A stretch of DNA of 64,000 nucleotides from an uncultured Bacteroidales bacterium (GCA_963732905.1 CAVTBM010000011.1:12686-76685); one strand, 5' to 3'; positions 6,828-22,014 are shown, numbered from the stretch's first letter. Made by a program: numbers and translations. The notes: a model not told the origin generated them from the sequence alone.

Positions 6828-6854
6828 TTACCGTCAGTAGTTTCGTACCCAGGA

Positions 6855-7241
6855 GTGCGGGGTTTAGAAGCCAAGATAATAAAATATAAAAGATTTAAAA
6901 ATTTGAGGAACCAATTTGGCACCTTAAGTTGGGGTGGCGTTCGTTATGCCCCAATGGCTTTTACAGAACAGGGTGTAGCCATGCTATCAAGTGCTTTAAA
7001 CAGCCAAAGAGTCATCGCTGTAAACATCCAAATTATACGGATCTTCACTAAAATGCGGGAGTTGTTTTCTACTCATAAAGAAATCCTTCAAAAACTTAAA
7101 CAGCTGTAGAAAAAAGACATAGATCAGGATGAAAAGATCATATTGATTTTTGAATATCTAAAGCAACCGGAAAAAGCCAAACAGGAAGAACCGGACCAAA
7201 AAAATCGCACCTCCATAGGTTACAAGCAAAACAAAAAGTAA
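6855..7241 (+). pseudogene. ORF6N-domain gene fragment: 5'-truncated, with an in-frame TAG
   Basis: WGGVRYAPMAFTEQGVAMLSSALNSQRVIAVNIQIIRIFTKMRE matches the ORF6N core. The N-terminal ~60 aa are missing because the fragment abuts the GH30 start. After TAG at 7107-7109 the same frame continues (KKDIDQDEKIILIFEYLKQ...) to TAA 7239-7241. Confidence 0.65.
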
Positions 7242-7525
7242 TAGTCACCCCCTTCACCTTCCACATATCCGACCCTTCTGCCCCCGATCCCTATCAGGGT
7301 TAGCTTTGGATGTTGCTTAAGAGGTGAAAATGAGGTGGTGCGTTCAGATGATCCGGAGATGAGTTCCTGGATTTTTTCTTTTAACTAAACGGCTAAGCCC
7401 TCATAGCCTGCCCCATTTTAACGGGGAACACCCCTAAAAAATCAATGAAAAGATGAATAACTAATTAAAAACACACAAAAATCTTCAGTTAAAGAGCTCA
7501 ATTAAAAGTCTTCTTGCGATAAAGC

Positions 7526-7556
7526 TTTGGCAGATATTAAAAAAATGCTAATTTTA
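7526..7556 (+). promoter_or_regulatory. Promoter-like box TTTG-N19-TAATTTTA
   Basis: TTTG at 7526-7529 and TAATTTTA at 7549-7556, a 7/8 match to the Bacteroidota -7 consensus TAnnTTTG, with a 19-nt spacer. Identical in all three module copies. Confidence 0.35.
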
Positions 7557-7577
7557 ATCTACGATAGTGTTCGTCCC

Positions 7578-7610
7578 AAACCTGACAGGTTTTAAAAACC
7601 TGTCAGGTTT
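7578..7610. promoter_or_regulatory. Perfect 15-bp stem / 3-nt loop hairpin AAACCTGACAGGTTT-TAA-AAACCTGTCAGGTTT
   Basis: Arms 7578-7592 and 7596-7610 are exact reverse complements. The hairpin lies 21 nt after the -7-like box and 23 nt before ATG 7634. Confidence 0.85.
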
Positions 7611-7633
7611 AGGATGTACTGTTTGATGAAGGC

Positions 7634-8646
7634 ATGATCAACATGAAAAACCAAACGCCTGAATACGAGTATTTTTTAAGGTACCATCCCGGCAATACAC
7701 GTGTTGTATTGAATACAGAAGCACAATTTGTAGAACAACACGATTATTACCCGTTTGGTATGGAGTTCGCCGGACGACAGGGAGGGGATATCAAATACCG
7801 CTATGACGGTAAGGAGCTGCAGGATATGGAAATCGGGGGAAAAGGATTGGATTGGTACGATTACGGGGCACGATTTTATGATTCCCGCATGGGGAAGTGG
7901 AATTCTCAAGAACCTAAAGCCGAATGTTATTATCAACAATCTTTATATATTTATTCAGGGAATAATCCAATATTATTCCATGATTTTGATGGGAATGATT
8001 ACGGCGTTACCATTGATCAAGGGTCAAAAACCATTACCATCAGTGCAGTATATTTATCCGACAAAAAAGGCATGCCAACATTAAGATGATCAGTTAATGA
8101 AATTAATAATTTAAGTGGCAAATATGTTTTTGTGCCAGGTGGAAAAGCTGCAATCAAGACTGGGCAGACAAATGCATATTCTGTCAATTTTCAACTTACT
8201 ACCGACATAGCTGAAGAAAATGCAACTTTTACCGACCAAAATACTGGAGAAACAGTTACATATGGATCCCAAGCGGACAAAATAGCAACTGACGATAACT
8301 CCGGGGTAGTAAATAGCTATAATATCGTTGAGAATGACGATACACCTAAAGCTGGGGGAGCTGGATCAAATCAAATAGATGTTGAATTATCATCCTCAAA
8401 ATCAACTTCGTTTCTAAGCATGAAATTGGACATACTTTAGGAATGGGGCATAGTTCTGGTATTATGGCTCCAGTAGGAGCTGCTGGAAATTTTGATGCGG
8501 GACAAATTCAACAAACCTTGTCAGGTGTAAATATTGGTGGCAACAAACGAAGTGATCCAAATGCCCCTGGAATTGGTAAGATGCTCGGTGGTCAAACAAA
8601 TGAAGGACTTGAAAATGGTCGAGTAATGTCTACAAAAAGACGATGA
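7634..8646 (+). pseudogene. Orphan Rhs/YD C-terminal tip 1 with a metzincin-like metallopeptidase toxin domain (nonsense plus frameshift)
   Basis: RHS core end: EYEYFLRYHPGNTRVVLNTEAQFVEQHDYYPFGMEFAGRQGGDIKYRYDGKELQD...[13 protein letters not shown]. In-frame TGA at 8087-8089, after which the same frame continues to 8440. A frame switch near 8390-8415 leads into the 8389-8646 frame, which encodes HEIGHTLGMGH (8419-8451), an exact HExxHxxGxxH motif. Confidence 0.75.
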
Positions 8647-8675
8647 AAGATTAATGAGAAGATATAAACGGAAAA

Positions 8676-9187
8676 ATGAAAATTAATCATCTTAGAACAA
8701 TCTTAATGTCTGTATTATTAAGTACAGTTAACAATTTTACTTCAGGTCAAACAATATTTGTACCTGAACAAAATGCACTGTTTTTTTTATGGACTCTGTT
8801 TGTCCTGACTATATTAGTACCGATTCAAGAATTTTATTTAATGGAATCGTTAGTCCTAAGCTATCTTATTTTCCAAAACCTTATGGTTGTTTTAACGATA
8901 AAGCATTATTCATTGGATTATTAATAAATTCTCAAAAAAATGATTCATTGAACTATACTAAAAGTATTATCGAATTTCAAGATAAAAAATACTCTTTGTT
9001 AAAATATTCTAAAAAAAGTAATTTAAGAAGACGGCAGTTTGTTATGAAAATTTATCGATCTTCAAAATATAACGAAAATGAATATGTTTTAATTCGTCTT
9101 CAACGTATTGGAGAAACTCTTGATTTCTTTTTTGAACTGAATAAACATGGAAGAGTAATTAGATGGTGTCAAGGCGGCAAATTTTAA
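8676..9187 (+). pseudogene. Immunity-like secreted protein for tip 1, split at a T8 tract
   Basis: The signal-peptide-like start MKINHLRTILMSVLLSTVNNFTSGQ runs into T8 at 8781-8788. The remainder (MDSVCPDYISTD...GRVIRWCQGGKF) is in another frame. One extra T would fuse them into a single ~170-aa protein. Confidence 0.55.
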
Positions 9188-9293
9188 ATATTATTTTTTT
9201 TGTATGGAAATAGCCCTTTCCCAAGGTAGGATATTAAGTATCGTAATTTTGATAGAAAGTTATAAGATTATTTGCTTAATCGCTAAGCCAGGG

Positions 9294-9980
9294 GTGTATG
9301 ATTATGGGTTCCGGTTCTACGATCCTGCAATTGGTCGATTCCCGAGCCTGGATCCCAAAGGCAGATGAGTTTGAAAATCTTTCACCTTACAATTATGCTA
9401 GCAACAATCCCATTACCTGCATTGATTTATGGGGTTTGCAAGGCAAACCCGTAAATGAAATTCGAGATAAAAATGGGAATATTACGGCAGCGACAACTAC
9501 TGCGCAACAGACAACATATATCCCCCCTATTGTGGAATTTGATGTTCCTTTAAGTCAAAATTCTGGAGATAATTTCATTGATAAGGTTTCCGATAATTTA
9601 GGAAATTCATCATCTTTAGTTGAAGCCACTGGAATGATACTTGAAAATACTACCGTAACAAAAACTGGAGCAACTGCTGGAGCCGTAGTTGCTATTGTTA
9701 AAACTTCAGCTGATGCCGCTACAACAGATTTTAGTAATAGCGAAGAAACCGCTGATTTTTTTGAAAACACCACCCAAACTGCTGTTGAAACAGAGCCGGG
9801 CCATTGTGAGCAGCTGTAGATGTAATACTTGAAAATGGAAAAGATAAAAATGGATTGACAAATTTAGACATTGATAGAAAGGATGATGCCTATAGTACAA
9901 ATAAGGACCGACTGGATGCTTACAGTATAATTATGCAATACAACTCTTCAGGCGGATCAGATAAAGATAAGGAAAAATAA
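9294..9980 (+). pseudogene. Orphan Rhs tip fragment starting at (V)YDYGFRFYDP, frameshifted
   Basis: VYDYGFRFYDPAIGRFPSLDPK, then a 1-nt insertion relative to tip 3 (CCCAAAGGCAGAT vs CCAAAAGCAGAT), then ADEFENLSPYNYASNNPITCIDLWGLQGKPVNEIRDKNGNITAATT. TAG at 9817. A third frame is open from 9810 to the TAA at 9978-9980, which abuts the next ATG. Confidence 0.7.
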
Positions 9981-10355
9981 ATGAAAATCGTTGACGCTGT
10001 TTATTATCTCTATTACAGATATTATCGAATTATCAGGAGTATAAGCTTAAAAACCAGCTATTATCAGGTTCGTGTAGTCTTATTTTTCTCGATGATTACA
10101 GGATTTAACATTGTCTCAGTAATTAAGATTCTAGATTTAGAAATAGATTTTAATAGATATTATACTATAGCTATTGCATTAATGTGGTTCTTTTTTTGGT
10201 TACTCTTTTTTTCGAAGTCAACCCGTTTAGAAAGTATATTAAAACATTTTGAAAAAGAAAGTAAAACTCATCAATTGGTTGGCGGAATAGGGGTAATTTT
10301 ATATTCAATAGTTTCTTTTATTATATTTATTACTGTTTTAGGTAATCCATCTTGA
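9981..10355 (+). CDS. Immunity-like small membrane protein (about 3 TM helices)
   Basis: The ATG directly follows the tip stop codon (TAAATG). Hydrophobic segments: VVLFFSMITGFNIVSVI, IAIALMWFFFWLLFF, VGGIGVILYSIVSFIIFITVL. AT-rich. Confidence 0.6.
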   Translation: MKIVDAVYYLYYRYYRIIRSISLKTSYYQVRVVLFFSMITGFNIVSVIKILDLEIDFNRYYTIAIALMWFFFWLLFFSKSTRLESILKHFEKESKTHQLVGGIGVILYSIVSFIIFITVLGNPS

Positions 10356-10606
10356 ATTAAGGCAAAATCTTGATGATTTTGATATCCCGCAAGAAGCACG
10401 AAACTTTCTCACCGGATTGTCCAAAAAGGCCCCATCGGGGTCAGAGAGCGATAGAATAATTGACAGGTAAGGTTCCCCGGCGCCCCATAGGGTGTGCAAC
10501 CAATTTTGAAAAGAGAATAAAGGAAATCTAGATGAAATTCCATAATCTTTGAAAAGAGGGGGCTTGCTTTTAAATTGTATTTTAATACAGGAGAACAGGA
10601 TATGTA

Positions 10607-10946
10607 TTCGATTTTTTATTGTAAAAACCTGAAACCCTCACGCTGATTTTTTCCTCTTTTTCCCATTAATTGGTGAAGCATTCCCGGACAGTTACTTCGT
10701 GTAGTTGCTTTCTAAAGTTATAAAACATTGGTGCGAAAGATTGAAAGCACCCTGATTGTGCGGCGGATATCCAGGCCGGGTCGATTACTGATGGCTGAAG
10801 AATTACAATTCCGGCAGGTACAGTATATGGCAGGGCAAAAGTATGTGAGTTCGACTGAACGGTACCAGCTGAATAACCTGCGTAAATTGCAGAGCAAAAT
10901 AGATAAACCACATCCTTTAGGGAAAATTGAAGATCACAATTTGTGA
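10607..10946 (+). pseudogene. Tyrosine recombinase/integrase 3'-end remnant, copy 1
   Basis: Encodes ...LQFRQVQYMAGQKYVSSTERYQLNNLRKLQSKIDKPHPL, the catalytic-Tyr region of Bacteroidota-type integrases with His replaced by Gln. The frame is broken upstream at ACTGATGGCTGAAGAATTACAAT. Homologous to 16760-17081 and 19890-20222. Confidence 0.7.
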
Positions 10947-11016
10947 CCTCCAACCTGATTCGCAAAATGCGATACCAGGATTAAAAAGTTATTCTCTGTA
11001 ATAAGAATTAAAGAAA

Positions 11017-12051
11017 ATGAGAAAAGCAGTTACCCCTTCATTTGAAGACTTCTACAAAAGGATAAAAGAAATCCTGGAAACAACTCGTACCAGGATCTAC
11101 CAAACGGTAAATTTTGAAATGGTACAGGCCTATTGGAACATAGGCCGGATTGTTGTTGAAGAGGAGCAAAAGGGCAAAGAAAGAGCTGAATACGGCAGCT
11201 ATTTAATAGAAACTCTTTCAGAAAGGCTTACCAAGGAATATGGGAAAGGATTTACAAAGAGCAATTTAAAGTATATGCGACAGTTTTATCAGACTTTTGA
11301 AAAAAGTCACGCACTGCGTGGCGAATTATCCTGGACCCATTATCGCCTGTTGTTAAAAGTTGAAAATAAAAGTGCCCGTGAGTTCTATATCGAAGAAACC
11401 ATAAGGGGGAACTGGAGCACCAGGCAACTTGAACGGCAGATCAACTCTTTGTACTATGATCGCACATTAATGAGCCGGGATAAAAAGGGAATGATCATGG
11501 ATGGGCGGGCGTTGCAGGATAAAATGCAGCCGGAAGATATTATCAAGGACCCATATGTTTTAGAGTTCCTCGATGTAAGAGAAAATGAGAAACTCGCAGA
11601 ACGGGAGCTGGAGTTTGCTCTTATTGAAAAACTACAGCATTTATTACTTGAATTGGGTACTGGTTTTTCTTTTATCAGGCGTCAATACAGAATTACAGCA
11701 GATACAGATCATTTTTTTATTGACCTGGTTTTTTACAATTACATTTTAAAATTCTTTTTACTGATCGATCTTAAAATAGATAAGCTAAGTCACCAGGACA
11801 TAGGACAGATGGACTTTTATGTACGCTTCTTCGAGGAAAATGTAAAACAGCCCGGGGATAATCCAACAATAGGGCTTATTCTCTGTACCGAAAAGAATAA
11901 AACAATTGTTAAGTACAGTCTACTCAATGAAAGCAGGCAGATCTTTGCATCAAAGTATCAGATGTATTTACCAACGGAGAAACAGTTAAAAAAAGAGATC
12001 CAACGAGAGAAAGAACTGATTGAGCAGGAAAAAAAGCTCTCAAAAGAATAA
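11017..12051 (+). CDS. DUF1016/YhcG-family PDDEXK nuclease-like protein
   Basis: N-terminal YQTVNFEMVQAYWNIGRIVVEEEQKGKERAEYGSYLIETLSERLTKEYGKGF and C-terminal nuclease core ELGTGFSFIRRQYRI...FFIDLVFYN...LIDLK are characteristic of this family. Confidence 0.8.
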   Translation: MRKAVTPSFEDFYKRIKEILETTRTRIYQTVNFEMVQAYWNIGRIVVEEEQKGKERAEYGSYLIETLSERLTKEYGKGFTKSNLKYMRQFYQTFEKSHALRGELSWTHYRLLLKVENKSAREFYIEETIRGNWSTRQLERQINSLYYDRTLMSRDKKGMIMDGRALQDKMQPEDIIKDPYVLEFLDVRENEKLAERELEFALIEKLQHLLLELGTGFSFIRRQYRITADTDHFFIDLVFYNYILKFFLLIDLKIDKLSHQDIGQMDFYVRFFEENVKQPGDNPTIGLILCTEKNKTIVKYSLLNESRQIFASKYQMYLPTEKQLKKEIQREKELIEQEKKLSKE

Positions 12052-12134
12052 TTTTCATGTTGTATAAAAACTGCAACTACCGGTTATACAATTTAATTCA
12101 TTAACCAATCACCCTCCCCGCATCCAACCCTTCT

Positions 12135-12242
12135 GCAGCGGTTTTTTGTCATGATTTATCTGCTGGATTTTTTATGCAGGCAGTCCTTTTGCAGTTGCCG
12201 ATTGGGCCGCATATGGCAAAAGCCACGCCCGGAAAGTGCTGC
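12135..12242. repeat. Long imperfect palindrome (cassette-end element), copy with a 31-nt insertion
   Basis: GCAGCGGTTTTTTGTCATG...CCTTTTGCA / TGGCAAAAGCCACGCCCGGAAAGTGCTGC. The inner stem CTTTTGC/GCAAAAG and the outer GCAGC/GCTGC are complementary. Confidence 0.6.
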
Positions 12243-12413
12243 GCCTGATACTTAACAGGGTTGACTTTGGGGCTTACCTAAGTGATTAAAAATGCAGTGG
12301 TCTGTTCAAATAATCCGGGAACAGTCTGGATTTTTTTCTCTTAATTGAAGTAATTGAAAACACAGAAAAATCTTCAGTTAAGGGCTCAATTAAAAGTCTT
12401 CATGCGCTAGAGC

Positions 12414-12444
12414 TTTGGCAGATATTAAAAAAATGCTAATTTTA
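12414..12444 (+). promoter_or_regulatory. Promoter-like box TTTG-N19-TAATTTTA (copy 2)
   Basis: TTTG at 12414-12417 and TAATTTTA at 12437-12444. Confidence 0.35.
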
Positions 12445-12465
12445 ATCTACGATAGTGTTCGTCCC

Positions 12466-12498
12466 AAACCTGACAGGTTTTAAAAACCTGTCAGGTTT
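12466..12498. promoter_or_regulatory. Perfect 15-bp hairpin (copy 2)
   Basis: Same sequence as 7578-7610. Confidence 0.85.
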
Positions 12499-12594
12499 AC
12501 GATGTACTGTTTGATGAAGGCATGATCAACATGAAAAACCAAACGCCTGAATTCGAGTATTTCTTAAAGAGACCATCCCGGTAATACAGGTGTT

Positions 12595-13509
12595 GTGCTG
12601 AATACAGAAGCACAATTTGTAGAACAACATGATTATTACCCGTTCGGTATGGAGTTCGCCGGACGTCAGGGAGGGGATATCAAGTACCGCTATAACGGGA
12701 AAGAACTGCAGGATATGAAAATCGGGGGAAGAGGTTTGGATTGGTACGATTATGGGGCGAGGTTCTATGACCCGGCATTAGGTAGGTGGAATGTTCAAGA
12801 TCCCTTGGCGGAATATCACTTTAACCAATCTCCATATAACTACGTAGAAAATAATCCTTTGCTTTATATTGATCCCTTTGGACTAAATAAAGAAGATCGT
12901 CAAGAAAGAAGAAGACAGAGAAGAGCTAAAAGAAGGAATCAAAAAGTTCCAGAGGACCTAAGATATGATCTACCAGGAGTGGATTGTGTCGGCTCAGCTC
13001 CAAGTACTCCCAAACCCATTGATCCAAAAAATTTAGCTAACAAAGGTGGAACTGTACCTGGGGGCATCTTTCTCTGGAGTATTTTTGGTGAAGGTTCAGC
13101 TGGCATCGGAACTACCAACAAAGATGTCGAAAGCCTTAATCTTGATTGGTTGCTTATTTTGCTTATAGCTCAGCATGGGAGTATCCCCACTGAGAGAATT
13201 GAGGCAATAAATGAAGCAATTGCCAAGGCAAAAAATGCTATAGAGGAAGCTACAGTAACTTCGGATGAAGAGATTTATGAGAAGAATACAGGTAATTCTA
13301 AGGCTGCTAGTCCTCAAAAGAAGACAATTGTGAAAACATATTCAGAGAAATCAAATAAAGAAGTTGTTTCTAAGCGGGGATTTTATAATCGATTTAACAA
13401 GGATACAACCAAACTCTACGAGGTTCGTCCAAAATCAGGTGATACCATTTGGGTATGGCCGACCAATCCTGATGGGACTGTCAAAAATCCACCTGAACCA
13501 TATAAATAA
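12595..13509 (+). CDS. Orphan Rhs/YD C-terminal tip 2 (canonical PxxxxDPxGL, unknown toxin domain)
   Basis: YYPFGMEFAGRQGGDIKYRYNGKELQD...[27 protein letters not shown]...NNPLLYIDPFGL, then an Arg-rich linker RQERRRQRRAKRRNQK and ~190 aa with no motif I recognise. The module ATG at 12522 is out of frame because of a 1-nt insertion (AAAGAGACC vs AAAGGACC) and stops at 12582-12584. Confidence 0.75.
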   Translation: MLNTEAQFVEQHDYYPFGMEFAGRQGGDIKYRYNGKELQDMKIGGRGLDWYDYGARFYDPALGRWNVQDPLAEYHFNQSPYNYVENNPLLYIDPFGLNKEDRQERRRQRRAKRRNQKVPEDLRYDLPGVDCVGSAPSTPKPIDPKNLANKGGTVPGGIFLWSIFGEGSAGIGTTNKDVESLNLDWLLILLIAQHGSIPTERIEAINEAIAKAKNAIEEATVTSDEEIYEKNTGNSKAASPQKKTIVKTYSEKSNKEVVSKRGFYNRFNKDTTKLYEVRPKSGDTIWVWPTNPDGTVKNPPEPYK

Positions 13510-13516
13510 ATTGGTA

Positions 13517-14314: not shown

Positions 14315-14829
14315 ACTGGTATGATTACGGGGCAAGGTTTTATGATCCGGCGATTGCAAGGTGGAATAAAAAAAGACAACAAGACATAAATGATGAATTG
14401 CGACTTCTTTCAATGGTACATAATAAAATAGTTAATAATAATACAGGGAATAATAATGATAAATATCCTGGATGGTCTGGATTAATAGGAATTTCGCTAG
14501 GCAGTCTCGATTTGTGGAATAATATGAAGGATAATTTATTGGCATCAAAATCAATCATAGAAAATCAAATTGAGGAGATTAATGAAAGATTAAAGAACAA
14601 GAATGCATCTTCTTCAGAGGTTGATAAATTACAAAACAATTTGAATGATTTGGTTAAGAAACAAGCTCAAATTGATTCGGTTATTGAAGCTGTCATAAGA
14701 GTTATTGATAATTCTAAAAAATATCAAGAACAATTAACTTCTCCAAGAGATGTCACAAGAACTAGTTCTTCTGGTGAAAATGATTATAAAAAAAGTCTTG
14801 ATATCGTTAAGAAATGGGGAAATGAATAA
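14308..14829 (+). pseudogene. Orphan Rhs tip fragment starting at [11 protein letters not shown], with no start codon of its own
   Basis: The frame opens at 14308, overlapping the stop of the preceding gene: (RVN)[31 protein letters not shown].... It then has an Asn-rich and coiled-coil-like tail (NQIEEINERLKNKNASSSEVDKLQNNLNDLVKKQAQ). The first ATG is at 14398. Confidence 0.65.
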
Positions 14830-14852
14830 AATTGAATTAATTATAGTTAGTT

Positions 14853-15245
14853 ATGAAGCAAGACTATGACGATATTCAGAATATTCTAACGGATTATTAC
14901 TTAAATGATGATTACATTAGTGTAATAAATACATGGGAATCTAAGATAAATTATAAATTATTACCTAAATTCGATAATAAATTACGAAATGAAGTACTTC
15001 ATGCGTTAATTATAAGTTATAAAAAAACCGAGAATATTAAACAGAGCATTTTTTATATAAATAAATATATTAATAAATTGTTAAATAATCATCAAAATGA
15101 AAACTTTGATGAAGAATTGCTTTTCTGTTTTACAGTTCTCGCATCAATATATGCATCTAAACAAAATTATCTAAAAGAATTAAAAACGCTATATAAATAT
15201 AATAAATTTAATAACAAAAATAAAAAAAACAAAAAACCTAATTGA
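14853..15245 (+). CDS. Immunity-like small cytoplasmic protein (helical, Lys/Asn-rich tail)
   Basis: 130-aa ORF 23 nt after the tip stop. Very AT-rich. No recognisable motif. Confidence 0.45.
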   Translation: MKQDYDDIQNILTDYYLNDDYISVINTWESKINYKLLPKFDNKLRNEVLHALIISYKKTENIKQSIFYINKYINKLLNNHQNENFDEELLFCFTVLASIYASKQNYLKELKTLYKYNKFNNKNKKNKKPN

Positions 15246-15261
15246 TGATTTAGAAGTACAT

Positions 15262-15492
15262 TTGTTTAATAAATTTCAGATGATGAACAAATTTTATTCT
15301 TACATATTTATTTCTTTGATAATTTTACATTTGATAATTGAAAATTTTTTTTCAATATCAATTAGTAATAAATTCTTTCTTGTGTTGTGGACAGCTTTTA
15401 TTATATTTTCTATGATATGGATTGTAATCACATTGCTAAATAAAAAACTTGCCTTAAAATTTTTTAGATTTCTTATCAGTGTTGTCCAGTAA
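15262..15492 (+). CDS. Small 2-TM membrane protein (possible second immunity gene)
   Basis: YSYIFISLIILHLIIENFF and FLVLWTAFIIFSMIWIVITLL are hydrophobic helices. The start is uncertain (listed TTG at 15262, ATG at 15280). Confidence 0.4.
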   Translation: MFNKFQMMNKFYSYIFISLIILHLIIENFFSISISNKFFLVLWTAFIIFSMIWIVITLLNKKLALKFFRFLISVVQ

Positions 15493-15605
15493 AACCGGAA
15501 GTTACTAATATTTTACAATCAAATGCCTGAAAATCAATCATACATTTTTCATTTTTCAAAAGCAAGCCCACCTCATTTCCGGGAATAAGGAATTTTCATA
15601 CTCAT

Positions 15606-15701
15606 TCGCTCGTTGTTTGTAAGCCTTCGGCTAACTGCATCTTGAAATAATACCTTCTACCAGTTAGCTTTGTTGCAAAGCAAGCCTTCGGCTAACGAGC
15701 G
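15606..15701 (+). other. Intergenic element: 15-bp direct repeat AAGCCTTCGGCTAAC x2 enclosed by an 8-bp stem
   Basis: Direct repeats at 15621-15635 and 15682-15696. CGCTCGTT (15607-15614) pairs with AACGAGCG (15694-15701). GCTAACTG (15630-15637) pairs with CAGTTAGC (15661-15668). Confidence 0.3.
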
Positions 15702-15868
15702 CCTTTGGTTTCATAGCGTAATGGATCCCTCAAAGAGAATAGCCAGTTCAGACTTTGGTTATTCTTACTCCCTCAATGTCAAGATGTTTTAGCTCCACGA
15801 TTATTGAGTGAAACAAATTTATTTCTAAAGATTTATCTTTACATTTGTAAAACAATGCTTGGAAGATC

Positions 15869-16096
15869 ATGAGGACAATACTGATAAAAATACCCGATAG
15901 TGTTGATATGTCAGACTATGACTTTTCAATGATGATTGCTGCAAAGCTTTATGAAGATAGAAAACTGTCTTCCGGTCAAGCTGCCGAAATGGTTGGTTTA
16001 ACCAAAAGAGCTTTCATAGAAATTCTCGGAAAATACGGAGTTTCGTTGTTCAGCAATTCAATTGATGATCTTCATTCAGATATAGCAAATGCCTAA
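15869..16096 (+). CDS. UPF0175-family antitoxin
   Basis: LSSGQAAEMVGLTKRAFIEILGKYGVSLF is the typical UPF0175 core. There is an 8-nt overlap with the downstream PIN-like gene. A perfect TAnnTTTG box (TACATTTG) sits at 15840-15847. Confidence 0.75.
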   Translation: MRTILIKIPDSVDMSDYDFSMMIAAKLYEDRKLSSGQAAEMVGLTKRAFIEILGKYGVSLFSNSIDDLHSDIANA

Positions 16097-16559
16097 GGTC
16101 ATTATTTCCGATACCAGTGTTCTGAATCTATTTCAAAAAATCAGCAGACTCGACCTGCTTCACGGAATTTATGAAGAGATCATTACAACGCCTGAAGTCG
16201 CAGAGGAATATGGGGACGAGTTACCTATATGGATAAATATTCAAGTAGTTACCGACAGAAAATATCAGGAACTATTGGAATTACAGGTTGACAAAGGTGA
16301 AGCCAGTGCCATCGCACTGGCTAAAGAATATTCAGATGTATTATTATTGCTCTATGATTTAAAGGCCAGGAAATTAGCTACTAAATTGAATTTGAAATAT
16401 ACCGGGACACTTGGTATTATAACGAAGGCAAAGAATAAAGGCTTAATTGAAAAGGTTAAACCTGTCCTGGATAAAATTCAAAAGACAGATTTCAGGATAT
16501 CAGAAAAGATACTTAAAGAGATTCTTTTACTGAATGACGAAGACGTGCAAGAGAGATAA
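16089..16559 (+). CDS. DUF3368-type PIN-like nuclease toxin
   Basis: VIISDTSVLNLF...GEASAIALAKEY...LLLLYDLKARKLATKLNLKYTGTLGIITKAKNKGLI matches the DUF3368 pattern. Note LLYD where LLDD would be typical. Confidence 0.7.
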   Translation: MPKVIISDTSVLNLFQKISRLDLLHGIYEEIITTPEVAEEYGDELPIWINIQVVTDRKYQELLELQVDKGEASAIALAKEYSDVLLLLYDLKARKLATKLNLKYTGTLGIITKAKNKGLIEKVKPVLDKIQKTDFRISEKILKEILLLNDEDVQER

Positions 16560-16622
16560 ATCACATTTGAGCAAGTTATACCTAGGATTGGTATCTGAAT
16601 TTCATCAAGTCTCAAAAAAAAT

Positions 16623-17081
16623 CATTGGTATGATTACGGGGCACGGTTCTATGAACCCCGGCTGGGTAGGTGGCATGTGATTGTTCCGGCCACTGAGGCC
16701 AATCACTTTGAATGGTAACGTTCATATGCCGGGCCTTAAACACATGAGCTCATCACACAAATTCGATTTTTTATTGTAAAAAACCTGAAATCCTCACGCT
16801 GATTTTTTCCTCTTTTTCCCATTAATTGGTGAAGCATTCCCGGACAGTTACTTCGTGTAGTTGCTTTCTGAAATTATAATAAACTGGTGCGAAATCTAGA
16901 ATGCAACCAGATTATGCGGCGGATATCCGGGCCGGGTCGATTTTTGATGGCCGAAGAATTACAATTCCGGAAGGTGCAGTATATGGCAGGTCATAAGTAC
17001 GTGAGTTCTACGGAACGGTAACAGCTGAATAACCTGGATAAGTTGCAGGAACGGATAAACAAATATCACCCGCTGAGTTAA
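16623..17081 (+). pseudogene. Rhs junction stub plus tyrosine recombinase 3' remnant, copy 2
   Basis: [31 protein letters not shown] (16623-16718), then ...KVQYMAGHKYVSSTER*QLNNLDKLQERINKYHPLS*. The catalytic Tyr codon is TAA. Near-identical to 19751-20222. Confidence 0.75.
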
Positions 17082-17131
17082 ACTAAAAGTGAATTTTAAT
17101 CGTTAAATTTGTGTACATAATGAGAGTAAAT

Positions 17132-17368
17132 ATGAATCTTCAGTCCAAAAAATTAGAGCTGGTTCAGCTTATACTGAATACTAAAAAACCCTCTATCCTT
17201 GCCAGGGTTGAAGCTGTACTAAAAGGGAAAGCTGTCGATTGGTGGGATGAGATAAGCCCGGAGGAACGGGAAGCCATAGAAAAGGGCTTATCAGAGGCAG
17301 ATAAAGGAGAGCTTATACCTCATGAAGAAGTCATGAAAGAAGTAAGGGCAAAATATAAGCTCGACTAA
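17132..17368 (+). CDS. Antitoxin partner of the RelE/ParE-family toxin
   Basis: Small acidic protein (WWDEISPEEREAIEKGLSEADKGELIPHEEVMKEV). TAATG overlap with the toxin gene. The start could also be 17111 or 17120. Confidence 0.6.
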   Translation: MNLQSKKLELVQLILNTKKPSILARVEAVLKGKAVDWWDEISPEEREAIEKGLSEADKGELIPHEEVMKEVRAKYKLD

Positions 17369-17664
17369 TGAAGATTAGTTGGACTCCCACAGCAAGAAGG
17401 ACTTATTTTAAAGTTCTCGATTATTTAGCGGAGAACTGGACCAAAAGAGAAGTTGCCCATTTTATAAGCGAAGTTGAAAGCTTATTGAATCAGATCACCA
17501 ACAATCCTGAAATGTTCCAGGCCTCCAGAAAAAAGAAAAGCGTCAGAAAGGCTCTAATCACGAAACACAACGCGCTTTATTACAGGATAAAACCCAGAAA
17601 AAAAGAACTAGAGCTAATCACCTTCTGGGATAATCGCCAAAACCCCAATAAATTAACTTATTAG
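17368..17664 (+). CDS. RelE/ParE-family type II toxin
   Basis: 98 aa. WTPTARRTYFKVLDYL...ALYYRIKPRKKELELITFWDNRQNP is a typical ParE/RelE fold signature. Confidence 0.7.
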   Translation: MKISWTPTARRTYFKVLDYLAENWTKREVAHFISEVESLLNQITNNPEMFQASRKKKSVRKALITKHNALYYRIKPRKKELELITFWDNRQNPNKLTY

Positions 17665-17694
17665 TTATCCACCCTCCCCGCCTCCAACCCTTCT

Positions 17695-17770
17695 GCAGCT
17701 GTTTTTGTCATGCCTTTTGCCGTTGCCGATTGCACCGCGTATGGCAAAAGCCACGCCAAAAAACTGCTGC
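17695..17770. repeat. Long imperfect palindrome (cassette-end element)
   Basis: GCAGCTGTTTTTGTCATGCCTTTTGCC (17695-17721) against GGCAAAAGCCACGCCAAAAAACTGCTGC (17743-17770). About 80% complementary, with a 21-nt loop. Confidence 0.7.
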
Positions 17771-17997
17771 CCCAGGCAACGGTACATAATGTGTCGGTAT
17801 TTGAAACCCTCCACCAGAAACGGGATCTTCCTTCCAACCGGAATTTTTTCTTTTAACTGAACGGCGAAGCCCTCATAGCATACACTGTTTTGACTTGTAG
17901 CACCTCTAAAAAATCAATTAATAGGTAAATAACAAACTGAAAACTCGGAAAAATCTTCAGCTAAAGGGCTCAATTAAAAGTCTTCGTTTGCTAAAGC

Positions 17998-18028
17998 TTT
18001 GGCAGATATTAAAAAAATGCTAATTTTA
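17998..18028 (+). promoter_or_regulatory. Promoter-like box TTTG-N19-TAATTTTA (copy 3)
   Basis: TTTG at 17998-18001 and TAATTTTA at 18021-18028. Confidence 0.35.
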
Positions 18029-18047
18029 ATCTACGATCGTTCGTCCC

Positions 18048-18080
18048 AAACCTGACAGGTTTTAAAAACCTGTCAGGTTT
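18048..18080. promoter_or_regulatory. Perfect 15-bp hairpin (copy 3)
   Basis: Same sequence as 7578-7610. Confidence 0.85.
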
Positions 18081-18103
18081 ACGATGTACTGTTTGATGGA
18101 GGC

Positions 18104-19003
18104 ATGATCAACATGAAAAACCAAACGCCTGAATACGAGTATTTCTTAAAGGACCATCCCGGTAATACACGTGTTGTGCTGAATACAGAAGCACAATTTG
18201 TAGAACAACACGATTATTACCCGTTTGGTATGGAGTTCGCCGGACGACAGGGTGGAGATATCAAGTATCGGTATAACGGAAAGGAAATGCAGGATATGAA
18301 AATCGGGGGGAGAGGGTTGGATTGGTACGATTACGGATTTAGATTTTACGACCCGGCTTTAGGTCGGTTCCCAAGCCTGGATCCAAAAGCAGATGAGTTT
18401 GAAAATCTCTCTCCATACAACTATGCCAGTAACAATCCGGTAACATGTATTGATCTATGGGGAATACAAGGCCGGCCAGTAAATAAAGTTCGAGATCAGA
18501 AGGGAAATATTACAGCTGCTACAACCAGTGCTCAACAGTCAACGTATATTTCTACAATGGAGCCAAAAACTATTAGTAATAACTCAATTGAATTTAAACC
18601 GACAAATGAGTCTATATATCAGAGTGCAAATTGGTGGGAACTTACAACTGCTCCAGATATACAAGAATGGTTAAAAGTTGACAAAGTTCCATCGGCTGTA
18701 GCTGTAGGAGGACTTATAACTGTTCTAAGCGCAGCTGTTCCAGAAGTCATTTCAGGTATAACAGATTTCGGTTCTAATGTCACTTTAAATATTTCTACAT
18801 CAATTGAATCTTCAACAACAATTGCAGTCGGAACTGGTGTGGTAGTGGGTGCTGCTAAAACATTAACTGATGCCCCACCTGATACGCCTGAAATACCTAA
18901 CCCGGTAATAGAGGTTTCTTCAGAAATGACTGAATATATTATTCAATCTACACACGAGTTTATGAAAAATATTCAAAATTCAAATGATAAAAAGTCTAAA
19001 TAG
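18104..19003 (+). CDS. Orphan Rhs/YD C-terminal tip 3 (intact ORF) with a Gly/Ala/Val-rich hydrophobic C-terminal domain
   Basis: MINMKNQTPEYEYFLKDHPGNTRVVLN...YYPFGMEF...GLDWYDYGFRFYDPALGRFPSLDPKADEFENLSPYNYASNNPVTCIDLWGIQG. The tail contains VPSAVAVGGLITVLSAAVPEVISG and TTIAVGTGVVVGAAKTL. Confidence 0.8.
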   Translation: MINMKNQTPEYEYFLKDHPGNTRVVLNTEAQFVEQHDYYPFGMEFAGRQGGDIKYRYNGKEMQDMKIGGRGLDWYDYGFRFYDPALGRFPSLDPKADEFENLSPYNYASNNPVTCIDLWGIQGRPVNKVRDQKGNITAATTSAQQSTYISTMEPKTISNNSIEFKPTNESIYQSANWWELTTAPDIQEWLKVDKVPSAVAVGGLITVLSAAVPEVISGITDFGSNVTLNISTSIESSTTIAVGTGVVVGAAKTLTDAPPDTPEIPNPVIEVSSEMTEYIIQSTHEFMKNIQNSNDKKSK

Positions 19004-19047
19004 AGTTAGAAATAAATTTGTATTTTTAATTCATCAACTCATAATTT

Positions 19048-19269
19048 ATGTGTTTTTTGGATAAAAAAAGGCTTAAATATATCTATTTTTATTTTATGAT
19101 TCTTTGTTTTCAAATTATATTGGTGAGAATATTTGGTGAACCTGATTTATTAAAAACACCAAGCTCATCACAAACTTGGGGAGAAAGTATTAATGATTTT
19201 CCAATATATATGATAACATCGTTATTCTTAACGTTAATATTCTATTTTTTTGATCGCTTCTCTAAATAA
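19048..19269 (+). CDS. Immunity-like 2-TM membrane protein
   Basis: YIYFYFMILCFQIILVRIF and FPIYMITSLFLTLIFYFF helices. AT-rich. 44 nt after the tip 3 stop. Confidence 0.5.
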   Translation: MCFLDKKRLKYIYFYFMILCFQIILVRIFGEPDLLKTPSSSQTWGESINDFPIYMITSLFLTLIFYFFDRFSK

Positions 19270-19284
19270 TAATTACAATGCAAT

Positions 19285-19728
19285 ATGACAAACTTTAGGA
19301 ATATTCGAAATTTAAATATTGTATTTTCATTTATTCTTATAGTTATGTATTTTCGTTCATTACGATATTTAATAATGATTATAACTCATTATAATGTATT
19401 TTTTAAGAGAAGTTACTTTCAAATATTGTTCCTTTCACCTAGATTAGTTGTGTTTATTAATACTTTTAATATAATTATTGGAGTATGTATATTAATAAAT
19501 GCTTTTGCTCTATTAAATAAAATGCAAAAAAGTATAATATTTATTAAAATATTACTTCCAATAAGTGCTATACTAAATTTACCATTTTTCTATAAAAATA
19601 TAATAGACTATGAGGATAATTTACATAAATATGTTAGCCTTGGAATTACAATGTTGATTTATATAATTTATTTAACCACATATCTTTTTTACAATAGTCG
19701 TAAAATCAAGCTTTTATTTACGAATTAA
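19285..19728 (+). CDS. Immunity-like polytopic membrane protein (about 4 TM)
   Basis: Four hydrophobic segments, e.g. NIVFSFILIVMYF, VVFINTFNIIIGVCILINAFALL, VSLGITMLIYIIYLTTYLF. AT-rich. Confidence 0.5.
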   Translation: MTNFRNIRNLNIVFSFILIVMYFRSLRYLIMIITHYNVFFKRSYFQILFLSPRLVVFINTFNIIIGVCILINAFALLNKMQKSIIFIKILLPISAILNLPFFYKNIIDYEDNLHKYVSLGITMLIYIIYLTTYLFYNSRKIKLLFTN

Positions 19729-19750
19729 CATATAATACAAAAAGGATGTA

Positions 19751-20222
19751 AACTGGTACGATTACGGGGCACGGTTCTATGATCCACGCCTAGGTAGGTG
19801 GCATGTTATTGTTCCGGCCACTGAGGCCAATCACTTTGAATGATATCGTTCATATGCCAGGCCTTAAACACATGAGCTCATCACAAAAATTCGATTCTAT
19901 ATTGTAAAAACCTGAATTCCTCACGCTGATTTTTTGCTCTTTTTCCCATTAATTGGTGAAGCATTCCCGGACAGTTACTTCGTAGTTGCTTTCTAAAGTT
20001 ATAATAAACTAGTGCGAAATCTTGAATGCACCCTGATTGTGCGGCAGATATCCGGGCCGGGTCGATTACTGATAGCCGAAGAATTACAATCTCCGGCAGG
20101 TTCAATATATGGGAGGGCATAAGTATGTGAGTTCTACGGAGCGGTATCAGCTCAATAACCTGGGTAAGGTACAGAGCAAATTGGAGAAATATCATCCATT
20201 GTCACATAATAGTCGCAAATAA
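19751..20222 (+). pseudogene. Rhs junction stub plus tyrosine recombinase 3' remnant, copy 3
   Basis: [30 protein letters not shown] (to 19843), then ...KNYNLRQVQYMGGHKYVSSTERYQLNNLGKVQSKLEKYHPLSHNSRK* ending at TAA 20220-20222. The frame is closed upstream by TAG in ACTGATAGCCGAAG. Confidence 0.75.
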
Positions 20223-20262
20223 GTTACCCTAATTGGTAACTTTGAATTAAATTTGTACTTGT

Positions 20263-20574
20263 ATGAGAATAATAAAAGAGAAAACTCTCATTGAATATTG
20301 CCGGAAGAGTAAATACAAGAAGGCGGAGGAATCCTTGAAATCCTGGGTTTATGAGGTAAAATACTCTACCTGGAATAATGTGAATCAGCTGAAACTGAAA
20401 TATAGAAATGCCAGCGTAATAAGTTCAAAAAGAGTAGTTTTCAATATCAAAGGCAATGATTACAGGTTAATCGTAGATATCGAATACAAACTAAAAATAA
20501 TTTTCATTGTCTGGTTTGGGACACATGAGGAATATGTTAGGATAGATGCAAAAACAATAAGATATGAATATTAA
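20263..20574 (+). CDS. higB: HigB-family type II toxin (mRNA interferase)
   Basis: 103 aa. LKSWVYEVKYSTWNNVNQLKLKYRNASVISSKRVVFNIKGNDYRLIVDIEY...FIVWFGTHEEY is the HigB_toxin pattern. Confidence 0.8.
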   Translation: MRIIKEKTLIEYCRKSKYKKAEESLKSWVYEVKYSTWNNVNQLKLKYRNASVISSKRVVFNIKGNDYRLIVDIEYKLKIIFIVWFGTHEEYVRIDAKTIRYEY

Positions 20575-21001
20575 AATATTGAAAACAGAAGAGGAATATA
20601 ACACAGCCTGTGAAAGAATTTATGAGCTGATACATAGTACAGAACAGTCTATTGAGCCTGATAGTCCAAAGGGAGAAGAACTGGAACTTTTGTCCTTACT
20701 TGTAGAAAAATATGAGCAGGAACATAATTATATGGATGCACCGGACCCGGTGGAAGCTATAAAGTTCAGAATGGAACAGATGAATTTAAAGCAAAAGGAT
20801 GTTGCTCCATTATTTGGAGGAAAGACACGAGTGTCAGAAGTCCTTCATGGGAAAAGAGCATTAACGCTTAAGATGATTACTTTATTAAACCGATATCTTG
20901 GCATCCCCCTGGATTCATTAATTAGTGGGAATAAGGACATAAAACTTGAAGCTGAAAATAAAGAGAAGTTACTAAAATATCATCCATCCAGGATTACCTG
21001 A
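20564..21001 (+). CDS. higA: HigA-family HTH antitoxin
   Basis: 11-nt overlap with higB. EEYNTACERIYELI...PDPVEAIKFRMEQMNLKQKDVAPLFGGKTRVSEVLHGKRALTLKMI (Xre-type HTH). Confidence 0.8.
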   Translation: MNIKILKTEEEYNTACERIYELIHSTEQSIEPDSPKGEELELLSLLVEKYEQEHNYMDAPDPVEAIKFRMEQMNLKQKDVAPLFGGKTRVSEVLHGKRALTLKMITLLNRYLGIPLDSLISGNKDIKLEAENKEKLLKYHPSRIT

Positions 21002-21062
21002 AAAGATCTAGGGCCACAATGATTTAAAAATCCACCACTACCCCACTCCCAATCCTTCTGAA

Positions 21063-21133
21063 GCAGTATTTTGGTGTGGCTTTTGCTATGCTCGACGCCA
21101 TCTGCAACTGTAATAGCCACACCAAAATACTGC
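21063..21133. repeat. Cassette-end palindrome, perfect 19-bp arms (fourth, partial module 21031-21140)
   Basis: GCAGTATTTTGGTGTGGCT (21063-21081) is the exact reverse complement of AGCCACACCAAAATACTGC (21115-21133). It is preceded by the leader variant TCCACCACTACCCCACTCCCAATCCTTCTGAA. Confidence 0.85.
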
Positions 21134-21198
21134 ATCACCAGTCTATGTTAACATAATATAAACAGCTGTAATCCTAAAAAGCTTATCTTTGTGTTACT

Positions 21199-21483
21199 AT
21201 GGATCGCAATGAAATAAATACACGGATCATTAAATACCTTAAGCCCTTCGAACCCGAAAAAATTGGCATATTCGGATCTTATGCCAAAATGGAGGAAAAA
21301 CCGGGAAGTGATATTGATATCCTGGTAAAGTTTAAGAAAACCATAACATTGCTTCAGCTTGCCCAAATTCACAGAGAACTTTCTCAAATCCTGGGGAAAA
21401 AAGTTGATTTGGTCACAGAGCCATCCCTAAAAAATGAACGGCTCCGAAAATATATTTACTCTGATCTTAAGATCATCTTTTAA
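21199..21483 (+). CDS. mntA: MNT-type nucleotidyltransferase antitoxin
   Basis: IGIFGSYAKMEEKPGSDIDILV is the minimal nucleotidyltransferase GS...DxD motif. TAATG overlap with the HEPN gene. TATCTTTG -7 box at 21186-21193. Confidence 0.8.
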   Translation: MDRNEINTRIIKYLKPFEPEKIGIFGSYAKMEEKPGSDIDILVKFKKTITLLQLAQIHRELSQILGKKVDLVTEPSLKNERLRKYIYSDLKIIF

Positions 21484-21818
21484 TGAAAGACGACCGGATT
21501 TACATTGACCATATACAGCAAAGTATCGAGAGAATTGAATCTTATTTATCCGGGAAAGATCATGATTCATTTTCTGATGACTATTTAACACAGGATGCAG
21601 TCGTAAGACAATTGGAAATAATTGGAGAAGCGACTAAAAGGATTTCAATGGAATTCAAAAGAGAGAATCCCCAGGTACCCTGGCTTGATATGGCTGGGAT
21701 GAGGGATGTGCTTATTCATGGTTAGATTGATGTGGATCTGGATATCATATGGAAAACCGTTTCGGAAAGCATCCCTGTCCTAAAACTGCTGCTCAAAAAC
21801 CTGAAGTATATAGGTTAA
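21483..21818 (+). pseudogene. hepT: HepT/DUF86 HEPN toxin with a premature TAG
   Basis: RQLEIIGEATKRIS...MRDVLIHG then TAG (21723-21725) where Tyr is expected. The same frame continues IDVDLDIIWKTVSESIPVLKLLLKNL to TAA 21816-21818. Confidence 0.7.
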
Positions 21819-22014
21819 ATTTTATCTGGTATGATGATAAGAACCAGAATCCAGGATATTGAAATCTCCCAAAAAAAGGAATGGCCTGTGAATAAGGGAA
21901 TATCCGCTGAGGAAACAATTCTTCTCCCTGCTGAACGGGGGCATGGAAAAGGCCGGTGACAGAGGAATGGTTTTCATAGCACTTATCTTTTAAGGTTGGG
22001 GTTGAAAAACGGCC

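Follow-up and report, generated by a model that had tools for sequence, protein, structure and literature searches.

An AT-rich island of Rhs toxin tips, immunity-like genes, and recombinase remnants in an uncultured Bacteroidales bacterium, and its probable origin from a family of integrative elements

The DNA analyzed here is a stretch of 64,000 nucleotides (nt) from an uncultured Bacteroidales bacterium (GCA_963732905.1 CAVTBM010000011.1:12686-76685), referred to as the window, in which positions 6855-21818 form an island of Rhs toxin tips, immunity-like small genes, toxin-antitoxin pairs, and remnants of recombinase genes. All the island genes lie on the plus strand, and the guanine-cytosine (GC) content is 35.3%, as compared with 44.4% in the left flank and 46.3% in the right flank, with values of 24-36% in the single cassettes. 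A preliminary description of this DNA, made from the sequence alone, had already regarded the region as richer in AT than its surroundings, and these figures agree with it. Seven sites that code for the residues YDYG (S1 to S7) delimit the cassettes, and an eighth, a half-site, is the right edge of the island. Unit 0 of the layout contains a truncated ORF6N gene (dORF6N), leader A, and an Rhs core end, then S1 with cassette T1 and S2 with cassette T2. Unit 1 starts with a remnant of the recombinase gene Int2 (dInt2), followed by a DUF1016 gene, leader B, and a core end, then S3 with T3 and S4 with T4, the latter accompanied by a PIN toxin-antitoxin pair. Unit 2 is composed of a stub at S5, dInt2, a ParE pair, leader C, and a core end, then S6 with cassette T6; and unit 3 contains a stub at S7, dInt2, HigBA, and MNT-HepT, after which come the half-site and the chromosome. 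Four tips and three stubs are, in this way, interleaved in the array.

The nature of the repeated core segment was assessed with the TIGR03696 model (NCBIfam, Rhs_assc_core), whose cutoff is 32.5 bits. Scores of 43.3 bits for positions 7634-8086 (T1), 58.3 bits for 12595-13506 (T3), and 57.5 bits for 18104-19000 (T6) were obtained, and the segment 9298-9816 (T2) gave a sub-threshold score of 17 bits. With three fragments over the cutoff, the shared segment is the end of the RHS core, as had been proposed. When three full-length Rhs proteins of related genomes were used in tblastn searches, the last ~130 core residues matched in seven places of the island, and no match was found in the rest of the 64 kb; the matched part corresponded to the equivalents of residues ~813-1012 of the full proteins, i.e., the core end. 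Among the open reading frames (ORFs) of at least 150 amino acids (aa) in the window, none had an Rhs or YD domain, and the tips showed neither a Pfam RHS match nor the YD-repeat shell (PF05593, ~1000 aa or more). An N-terminal trafficking or secretion domain was also absent, the tip ORFs beginning at most 20 codons before the DH(L/P)GN motif, or at YDYG. The earlier statement that the locus has no YD-repeat shell and no N-terminal secretion domain is, thus, upheld. Directly upstream of the array there is no main rhs gene, the left neighbor being a glycoside hydrolase gene, and no shell is present anywhere in the 64-kb window. The cleavage motif PxxxxDPxGL is canonical in T3 (IDPFGL) and was found as the variants IDLWG in T2 and T6 and HDFDG in T1; it was not seen in T4 or in the stubs. 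The core ends of the window read DHPGN, not DHLGN, and in a Prolixibacteraceae array (L043, positions 6076, 8062, and 10226), proline/glycine-rich insertions were observed in the DHLGN motif of the core ends (KDHPPVVGQVPPTVGQVPGNTRV).

Tip T1 (7612-8646) contains 95 core codons, site S1 (7853), and a metallopeptidase-like tip with the sequence HEIGHTLGMGH. It is damaged by a TGA codon at 8087 and a frameshift near 8420 (a three-frame reading), and, once repaired, it gave weak matches to Peptidase_M10 and Reprolysin_5. The next gene, immunity-like gene 1 (8676-9187), encodes a signal peptide, has no Pfam match, and carries a frameshift near 8790 that leaves two overlapping frames. Tip T2 (9270-9819) begins at S2 (GVYDYGFRFYDP) with no start codon and has a frameshift at ~9360; it is followed by immunity-like gene 2 (9981-10355; ~3 transmembrane helices, no Pfam match). 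Tip T3 (12500-13509) is composed of a core end, site S3 (12742), the IDPFGL motif, and a 200-aa tip of no known family, and its frameshift is one extra base just after the MINMKN start. Immunity-like gene 3 (13517-14314) encodes a MORN-repeat lipoprotein with a VSSC lipobox (Pfam MORN_2, 4.9e-14). In T4 (14311-14829), site S4 (GTAAACTGG directly followed by TATGATTACGG) and a 16-codon Rhs stub lead into a coiled-coil ORF that has no DPxG motif and gave weak coiled-coil matches only. Two immunity-like small genes come next (14853-15492), coding for a soluble 130-aa protein and a 76-aa protein with two transmembrane helices, with no significant Pfam match, and then a toxin-antitoxin pair (15869-16559) formed by a UPF0175 antitoxin (Pfam 5.3e-18) and a DUF3368, PIN-like toxin (3.5e-16). 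Tip T6 (18104-19003), with a core end, site S6 (18323), and a Gly/Ala/Val-rich tip, is the sole intact core-end/tip ORF, and a protein identical to its 299-aa product is on record (P0001); the two immunity-like genes behind it (19048-19728; 73 and 147 aa) encode multi-transmembrane proteins with no Pfam match. Overall, Pfam assigned no families to the tips and to most of the small genes.

The preliminary description had counted five tips and two stubs, the tips ending in five different C-terminal domains. T1, T2, T3, and T6 are real tips, with a linker and a D(P/L/F)xG motif, but T4 is not a tip and the stubs are three; moreover, T2 and T6 are 84% identical across the first 56 residues past the core, so the domains are not fully different. 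Its remark that genes with the look of immunity genes follow the tips was confirmed, as these are small ORFs for signal-peptide, lipoprotein, or transmembrane proteins. Likewise, the toxin parts are mostly broken and most small genes intact, as it had stated, except that immunity-like gene 1 (8676-9187) is itself frameshifted. A common 56-aa linker, followed by divergent Gly/Ala/Val-rich, glycine-zipper-like tails, was observed in T2 (9355-9819), T6 (18383-19003), and the protein P0010 of a related locus (L002, 10001-10831), and the small ORFs 3' of the three encode multi-transmembrane products. This pattern hints at toxins that target membranes and are paired with immunity proteins of the membrane.

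The sequence TGGTAYGAT was found seven times in the 64-kb window, as compared with 0.92 expected. Six of these copies are S-sites that keep the W codon, S2 reading GTGTATGAT, and the seventh is the half YDYG site (21827-21835; TGGTATGAT), which is joined to unrelated chromosomal DNA. The half-site starts 8 nt past the HepT stop codon, at the right edge of the AT-rich island, and the junction is identical in an independent contig (L169). At the same point, main rhs genes read TTGGAYTGG directly followed by TAYGAYTAYGG, and we propose TGGTAYGAYTAYGG as a DNA site at the rhs core end that also encodes the protein motif. In S1, S3, and S6, the site has the rhs-type flank TTGGATTGG and lies behind the 95-codon core piece, which only these three of the seven carry, and S4 and S7 (GTAAACTGG directly followed by TACGATTACGG in the latter) retain only GTAAACTGG of the right end of the element described below. 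Orphans with (W)YDYG as their exact beginning and a stop codon 0-18 codons before it amounted to 17 cases in many genomes, 3 in the window, and in several of the 17, the stop takes the place of the W codon. The cassettes would presumably stay exchangeable at the YDYG sites.

The preliminary description had missed three recombinase remnants, the ORF6N fragment, five toxin-antitoxin or defense-type pairs, and three leaders of ~450 nt. The recombinase remnants are three repeats of ~340 nt (10606-10960, 16737-17080, and 19864-20230) that correspond to the 3' end of Int2, a Xer-like recombinase gene of which each relic keeps ~100 terminal codons. They share 79-81% nucleotide and 77-83% protein identity with the last ~40 Int2 codons of intact elements (L002-L005) and cover residues ~280-321 of the 323 that compose Int2. 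The first dInt2 (10606-10960), a pseudogene remnant, is 79% identical in nucleotides to the L002 Int2 3' end, and tblastn aligned it with Int2 residues 283-321 of 323 at 77% identity. The second is fused to stub 5 (16617-17080; site S5) and the third to stub 7 (19745-20230; site S7), and the stub 5/dInt2 junction is 92% identical in stub 7 (repeat D8) and 90% identical in L086, a locus of a sister sample. Since upstream in-frame stops are common to all three copies, the dInt2 pseudogene is older than its triplication.

The cargo of unit 0, close behind the left edge of the island, is the 5'-truncated ORF6N gene (6855-7229; Pfam ORF6N, E=1.4e-7), of which positions 6888-7229 aligned by tblastn with residues 66-178 of the L002 ORF6N protein at 48% identity. 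Unit 1 carries a gene for a DUF1016/YhcG PDDEXK nuclease (11017-12051; Pfam YhcG_C 1.2e-55 and DUF1016_N 3.5e-48), unit 2 an antitoxin/ParE-family toxin pair (17111-17664; Pfam ParE_toxin 2.2e-7), and unit 3 a HigB/HigA pair (20263-21001; Pfam HigB_toxin 4.2e-26 and HTH_3 2.3e-6), along with the genes for an MNT nucleotidyltransferase and a HepT-like HEPN protein (21199-21818; both assigned by Pfam), the latter with a TAG nonsense codon at 21724. Around this codon, the HepT-like gene (21483-21818) reads LIHG-stop-IDVDLDIIW, and because the same codon is present in the independent contig L169, a sequencing error can be discounted: the gene is a true pseudogene or contains a recoding site. The cargo slot lies between the Int2 stop codon and a conserved segment of ~125 nt (window 6855-7229, 10961-12090, 17081-17666, and 20231-21818; L042 16688-17277; L002 8968-9516), and its contents differ by copy: ORF6N, HicAB, the ParE pair, the DUF1016/YhcG nuclease, or HigBA with MNT/HepT. 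It looks like an element-borne hotspot for toxin-antitoxin and defense genes.

The three non-coding leaders, A (7230-7611, a right-arm remnant), B (12052-12499), and C (17665-18081), form the three-copy repeat families D6, D10, and D12 and end in a hairpin (7578-7610, 12466-12498, and 18048-18080, respectively), whose fold gave z=-5. In leader C, positions 17667-17791 are 76% identical to L042 17291-17405 and L046 17819-17946, a segment 3' of the HicAB cargo. A Bacteroidetes-type, promoter-like TTTG-N19-TAATTTT pattern occurs in each of the three leaders, with the start codon ~75 nt farther on, and it would be a candidate promoter. The perfect 15-bp hairpin (AAACCTGACAGGTTT / AAACCTGTCAGGTTT) is placed exactly at the onset of the rhs-coding homology. 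Among 168 loci, it was found in these leaders only, including that of L086 (3099-3131), and it may represent a scar of the junction, a regulatory element, or a binding site. Directly 3' of the hairpin, the sequence reads YDVLFDEG-MINMKNQTPEYEYFLKDHPGNTRVV, and the 832-aa protein P0121, a longer relative, carries this stretch in its interior (...LDYVLFDEGLINMKNQTPEYEYFLKDHLGNTRVV...); the junction of the leader with a truncated rhs gene is therefore ~95 codons before YDYG. Similarly, MINMKNQTP, which had been taken for a start, is internal Rhs sequence in P0121. As only dInt2, cargo, and a partial right arm (three times) and one ORF6N fragment remain, the window holds relics and not members of the element; there are three to four of them in the island, all without enzymes.

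Intact relatives of these relics were analyzed in two sets of loci: 80 from species-representative genomes, picked with the core-end peptide (best match 59%), and 80 from metagenomes, picked by Int2 homology alone to remove the Rhs starting bias. In the metagenome loci L002-L005, a helix-turn-helix (HTH) gene on the opposite strand is followed by genes for a 921-aa primase-helicase (Zn-ribbon DnaG, Toprim, P-loop), Int1 (312 aa), Int2 (323 aa), ORF6N, a short Rhs tip, and a small gene. Both Int1 and Int2 scored as XerC/XerD-like, well under the equivalog cutoffs. Int1 reached 104-106 bits on the integron integrase model TIGR02249 (cutoff 265), the XerD/XerC models scoring higher, and Int2 gave no integron-integrase match. 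In the first set, three loci (L031, L042, and L046) have a full-length Rhs ORF whose tip and immunity gene are followed, ~1-2 kb farther on, by an intact module; an orphan tip starting at YDYG comes after the module in the last two, and in L031, none was found within the ~2.4 kb of downstream sequence. In the second set, 18 primase N-termini had 3.5 kb or more of sequence before them, and in 12 of these cases a YDYG site was found on the same strand, 1.5-2.9 kb upstream; four of these sites lie inside ORFs open for at least 877 aa. A YDYG site is found 1.2-3.9 kb downstream of Int2 ends in 9 of the 15 cases with at least 4.5 kb of sequence on that side.

Almost all the downstream junctions (28 of 29) read ...AAAAAnnnGCGTAAG/AnTGG directly followed by TAYGAYTAYGG, or a close variant, the right end of the element being ...GCGTAAGnTGG, and a TTTTGGAGCAGGTAAG box ~40 nt upstream of the junction is conserved in most of the 29. 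Because the same codons abut a conserved element end across elements with 45-80% Int2 identity, this arrangement is the main argument for site-specific integration at this point. The left end of the element has a terminator hairpin beside the HTH gene. The same tip was observed on both sides of the element, at 100% identity, in L042 (10240-11395 and 19199-20354, more than 1.1 kb), L158 (3637 and 13457), and L167 (3362 and 10620), which suggests either tandem cassette-plus-element multimers or integration by homology. A scan of IMG/VR with the Int2 alignment retrieved no relatives, and there is therefore no support for a phage or satellite identity. In the literature, whose coverage here was incomplete, we found no description of a primase/Xer-pair element at rhs core ends, which is weak evidence of novelty.

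A comparison of strains, which had been put forward as a way to detect cassette change, was built on the proteins P0001 and P0003, and it revealed a different tip behind the same site. Positions 10606-12803 of the window, which span dInt2, the DUF1016 gene, leader B, and the core end, correspond to L086 1240-3435 at 96% identity, and just past the YDYG site, L086 has another tip (P0003) and a DUF922 gene. This is a cassette replacement between close relatives. Of 45 related loci whose upstream flank was complete over 10 kb, 21 are also without a long Rhs ORF, and five of these 21 hold three to eight tips. A stand-alone array is, thus, not very unusual in this clade, and the preliminary view that the island departs from the usual arrangement was not sustained. 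In a search of 5.8 billion proteins, all the 120 listed relatives of T6 are 165-515 aa long, and the closest long Rhs core end among 1.8 billion representative proteins is that of P0121 (832 aa, 79% identical). Two primase-Int1-Int2(-ORF6N) elements in tandem were observed in each of L098, L159, L155, L093, and L100, some of them parted by one YDYG cassette. These metagenome elements can be seen as living counterparts of the relic stack in the window. Truncated primase fragments are present in L012, L017, L053, and L064, and dInt2 remnants in L051 and L057.

From these data, we consider it likely that tip/immunity cassettes accreted in tandem on the island through repeated insertion of one integrative element family, and that the resulting array has since decayed. 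Such an origin, from elements that normally lie behind full-length rhs genes, had not been recognized in the preliminary description. The intact element comprises a divergent HTH repressor gene, a ~920-aa primase-helicase, Int1, and Int2, together with a slot for variable cargo and a right arm that is non-coding and whose end, ...GCGTAAGnTGG, is set directly against the YDYG codons at the Rhs core end. What moves is probably the element together with one cassette. In a resident rhs gene, recombination at the site that codes for YDYG, putatively catalyzed by the element recombinases, would place the incoming tip and its immunity gene on the resident shell, and the old tip would be displaced downstream, behind the element. 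In the window, the enzymes and the shell have all been deleted, and between the relics (dInt2, cargo, leader, and 95-aa core end) lie one or two cassettes at a time. For Rhs and other polymorphic toxins, the exchange of tips is usually ascribed to homologous recombination with displaced cassettes. The broader proposal, that a widespread family of Bacteroidota elements with an Xer pair, a primase, and defense or toxin-antitoxin cargo uses Rhs-motif DNA as its attachment site and swaps the tip with each integration, is in our judgment evenly poised. If true, integron-like, site-specific recombination, and not homologous recombination alone, would drive both the diversification of Rhs toxins and the expansion of orphan and immunity arrays in this phylum, and the window would be the fossil record of at least three integration events.

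Several points weigh against an origin from such elements. There is no intact recombinase or primase in the window, catalysis at the YDYG site would be deduced from junction sequences only, and homologous recombination at the conserved stretch of ~35 nt could generate many of the same boundaries. The three leaders of the window join the core ~95 codons upstream of YDYG and not at the canonical junction; a recognizable site is missing in 6 of the 18 upstream and 6 of the 15 downstream flanks; the promoter-like pattern is not enriched in the window (7 matches as compared with 4.8 expected); and no small gene matched a named immunity family in Pfam. In addition, the left end of the element has no YDYG copy, and the simplest Campbell-type model therefore puts the upstream cassette in the moving unit. 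Against this model, the L090 and L091 elements are 92-94% identical and their upstream cassettes differ. Insertion of the element without cargo between the cassettes was also considered and not adopted, since the element lacks a left-end YDYG copy, which fits Campbell-type integration poorly.

A rival explanation is an ordinary orphan array shaped by homologous recombination and deletion alone, with the elements being unrelated mobile DNA that tends to land in AT-rich rhs regions. Long, near-identical core chunks with no recombinase nearby are indeed frequent (L025, L065, L062, and L073), and homology naturally stops where the tips diverge. Nevertheless, the right end of the element abuts the same codons in 28 of 29 junctions, at 45-80% Int2 identity, many orphans keep just ~35 nt of core and have a stop at or right before the W codon, and the island edge is a half-site on non-homologous DNA; we regard this explanation as improbable. 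Somewhat better placed, although still doubtful, is the idea of a silent store of cassettes that serves a full-length rhs gene located elsewhere in the genome, onto which the tips would be moved via the shared core end, a mechanism established for the orphan rhs modules of Salmonella (PMC3967940). The 95 core codons in three copies, the YDYG stretch in all the cassettes, and the different tip behind the same core in the close relative (L086) fit this idea; yet the tips T1, T2, T3, and T6 are on record (P0001, P0007, P0061, and P0122) and neither of the two protein searches gave a long Rhs protein with a near-identical core end, the 120 listed relatives do not exceed 515 aa, and the best long match is the 832-aa P0121 at 79% identity. 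The genome being probably a metagenome-assembled one, the lack of a matching gene is weak evidence. Furthermore, only T6 of the four real tips has escaped inactivation, and T4 does not count as a tip.

A true rAID-1-type island, driven by a recombinase and selected for orphan immunity, with the toxin fragments as incidental passengers, seems to us unlikely. By definition, rAID-1 has an intact recombinase homologous to BF9343_RS08045 heading an array of immunity genes (10.1101/471110; PMC12247911). The co-oriented, short genes with 24-36% GC in the cassettes, under the 41% criterion (PMC12247911), the repeated intergenic sequences, the recombinase remnants, and the broken toxin parts next to mostly intact small downstream genes are all in line with such an island, but no intact recombinase is found at the array head, and the intact relatives have an Xer-like pair plus a primase-helicase behind full-length rhs genes, in place of the single XerD-family gene of rAID-1 (10.1101/471110). 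In addition, no gene falls in a named immunity family, and the array is broken up by toxin cassettes and toxin-antitoxin pairs, at odds with the definition of polyimmunity loci, which are never interrupted by toxin cassettes (Zhang et al. 2012, PMC3482391). The preliminary suggestion of a rAID-like island was, therefore, correct as to the connection with a recombinase, seen here as three 3' pseudogene remnants of a paired, Xer-like recombinase that looks different from that of rAID-1, but not as to rAID-1 as defined. The last alternative, an assembly artefact in which the locus lost a full-length rhs gene or additional repeats by collapse, could be invoked because the repeats are 300-500 nt long with 85-95% identity and the source is probably metagenome-assembled; however, these repeats are diverged enough to assemble, similar stand-alone arrays exist in the genome of an isolate (L051) and in contigs of several megabases (L025 and L065), and an independent contig shows 99.3% identity over window 14850-21884 with the same order and right junction, which makes an artefact highly improbable. 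This contig, ERZ25039495 contig_79482, comes from an independent assembly of another sample; given its identity, its identical gene order, and the shared HepT nonsense codon and right junction, window 14850-21884 is not an assembly artefact.

As to its present function, the locus, without a shell and a trafficking domain, would be unable to deliver a toxin. Orphan immunity is probably what the small genes for membrane proteins and lipoproteins that are still intact provide, and the toxin-antitoxin pairs probably stabilize or defend the island, so that the functions selected now are most likely orphan immunity and those of the five toxin-antitoxin or defense-type pairs. This reading draws on the genomic context and on the literature about rAID and orphan immunity (10.1101/471110; PMC12247911; PMC3482391).

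When compared with known systems, the locus belongs to neither the orphan rhs arrays nor rAID-1 as defined, though it works like both. Toxin cassettes were described by Zhang et al. 2012 (PMC3482391), and orphan rhs modules in Salmonella (PMC3967940). The island resembles the orphan rhs-CT/immunity modules of Enterobacteria in that toxin-immunity pairs keep a core piece, mostly without their own start, are exchangeable at the core/tip border, and have inactivating mutations in the toxin parts. It differs from them in having no main rhs gene, in the many cassettes that hold ~35 nt of core and start at the YDYG codons, and in being interleaved with recombinase remnants, toxin-antitoxin pairs, and conserved leaders; moreover, the proposed driver here is a recombinase-bearing element and not homologous recombination alone. 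With rAID-1 of gut Bacteroidales, it shares the phylum Bacteroidota, a tyrosine, Xer-like recombinase, co-oriented, short, AT-rich genes, repeated intergenic DNA, and a likely orphan immunity. The repeats of the array are its leaders and YDYG sites, and they may or may not correspond to the published MEME motifs of rAID-1. Whereas rAID-1 has one intact head recombinase and immunity genes only, here intact relatives have two recombinases and a primase-helicase, of which the window keeps only 3' recombinase stubs; the array also includes toxin tips and toxin-antitoxin modules, and the intact elements lie behind functional rhs genes. How the rAID arrays of Bacteroidales are built has been stated to be unknown (PMC12247911).

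Polyimmunity loci beside XerC/D are similar in that tandem small genes lie near Xer-type recombinases, for which a recombinase-mediated accumulation has been suggested (PMC3482391), but those loci are, by the same account, never interrupted by toxin cassettes, and the island is. The likeness to integrons consists of cassettes bounded by a short recurring site, an upstream platform leader with a promoter-like motif and a start codon, and arrays that would grow by insertion at the platform-proximal site. Unlike in integrons, the site of the island lies within a protein-coding motif and is not a folded attC, the recombinases are Xer-like, and the element carries a primase-helicase and probably moves whole, so that the analogy is functional only. 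The locus and its relatives offer a concrete, testable candidate, with a defined element, a site of ~20-30 bp in a coding motif, and predicted circular intermediates. If confirmed, it would link Rhs diversification, orphan and immunity islands, and hotspots of toxin-antitoxin and defense cargo, which are now described separately. The message of the window itself is more modest: it is a non-delivering relic, likely valuable for its immunity and toxin-antitoxin cargo.

Stand-alone and recombinase-linked arrays were also observed in cultured or named lineages. In the isolate Roseimarinus sediminis DSM 28824 (L051, 9794-19992), a stand-alone array contains three core-end tips, immunity-like genes, and toxin-antitoxin pairs, together with two dInt2 remnants, an ORF6N gene, and a 1.5-kb direct repeat at 96.8% identity; this strain would be tractable for experiments. 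In Bacteroidales bacterium KA00344 (L061, 3243-10752), a full-length Rhs gene, three orphan tips, and a same-strand tyrosine recombinase with 24% identity to Int1 were found, and this may be another recombinase/Rhs association, in a host-associated lineage.

The flanks of the island are ordinary chromosomal DNA, as the preliminary description had stated, and hold carbohydrate-utilization and SDR genes, with a weak GH30 match with Big_2 domains, a GH5 gene, and a hybrid two-component system on the left, and SDR and GH2 genes on the right. Exact-protein look-ups for the SDR and DUF1016 ORFs returned no record, probably because of differing called starts. No tRNA genes were found in window 1-30000, and on the island, Rfam gave no more than sub-threshold hairpin matches. 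Two ORFs on the minus strand (47115-50306, 1063 aa, and 35747-38326, 859 aa) had no Pfam family at E <= 0.001 and were not Rhs according to tblastn. In the left edge of the island (6828-6890), the search for a matching half-site gave nothing convincing. The GH30-labelled gene next to it (4347-6827, minus strand) scored 25.7 bits with Glyco_hydr_30_2, which is sub-threshold for the Pfam cutoff of 27, and has three Big_2 domains. The left edge of the island lies within ~60 nt of the start of this gene, and its promoter region may, therefore, be island DNA.

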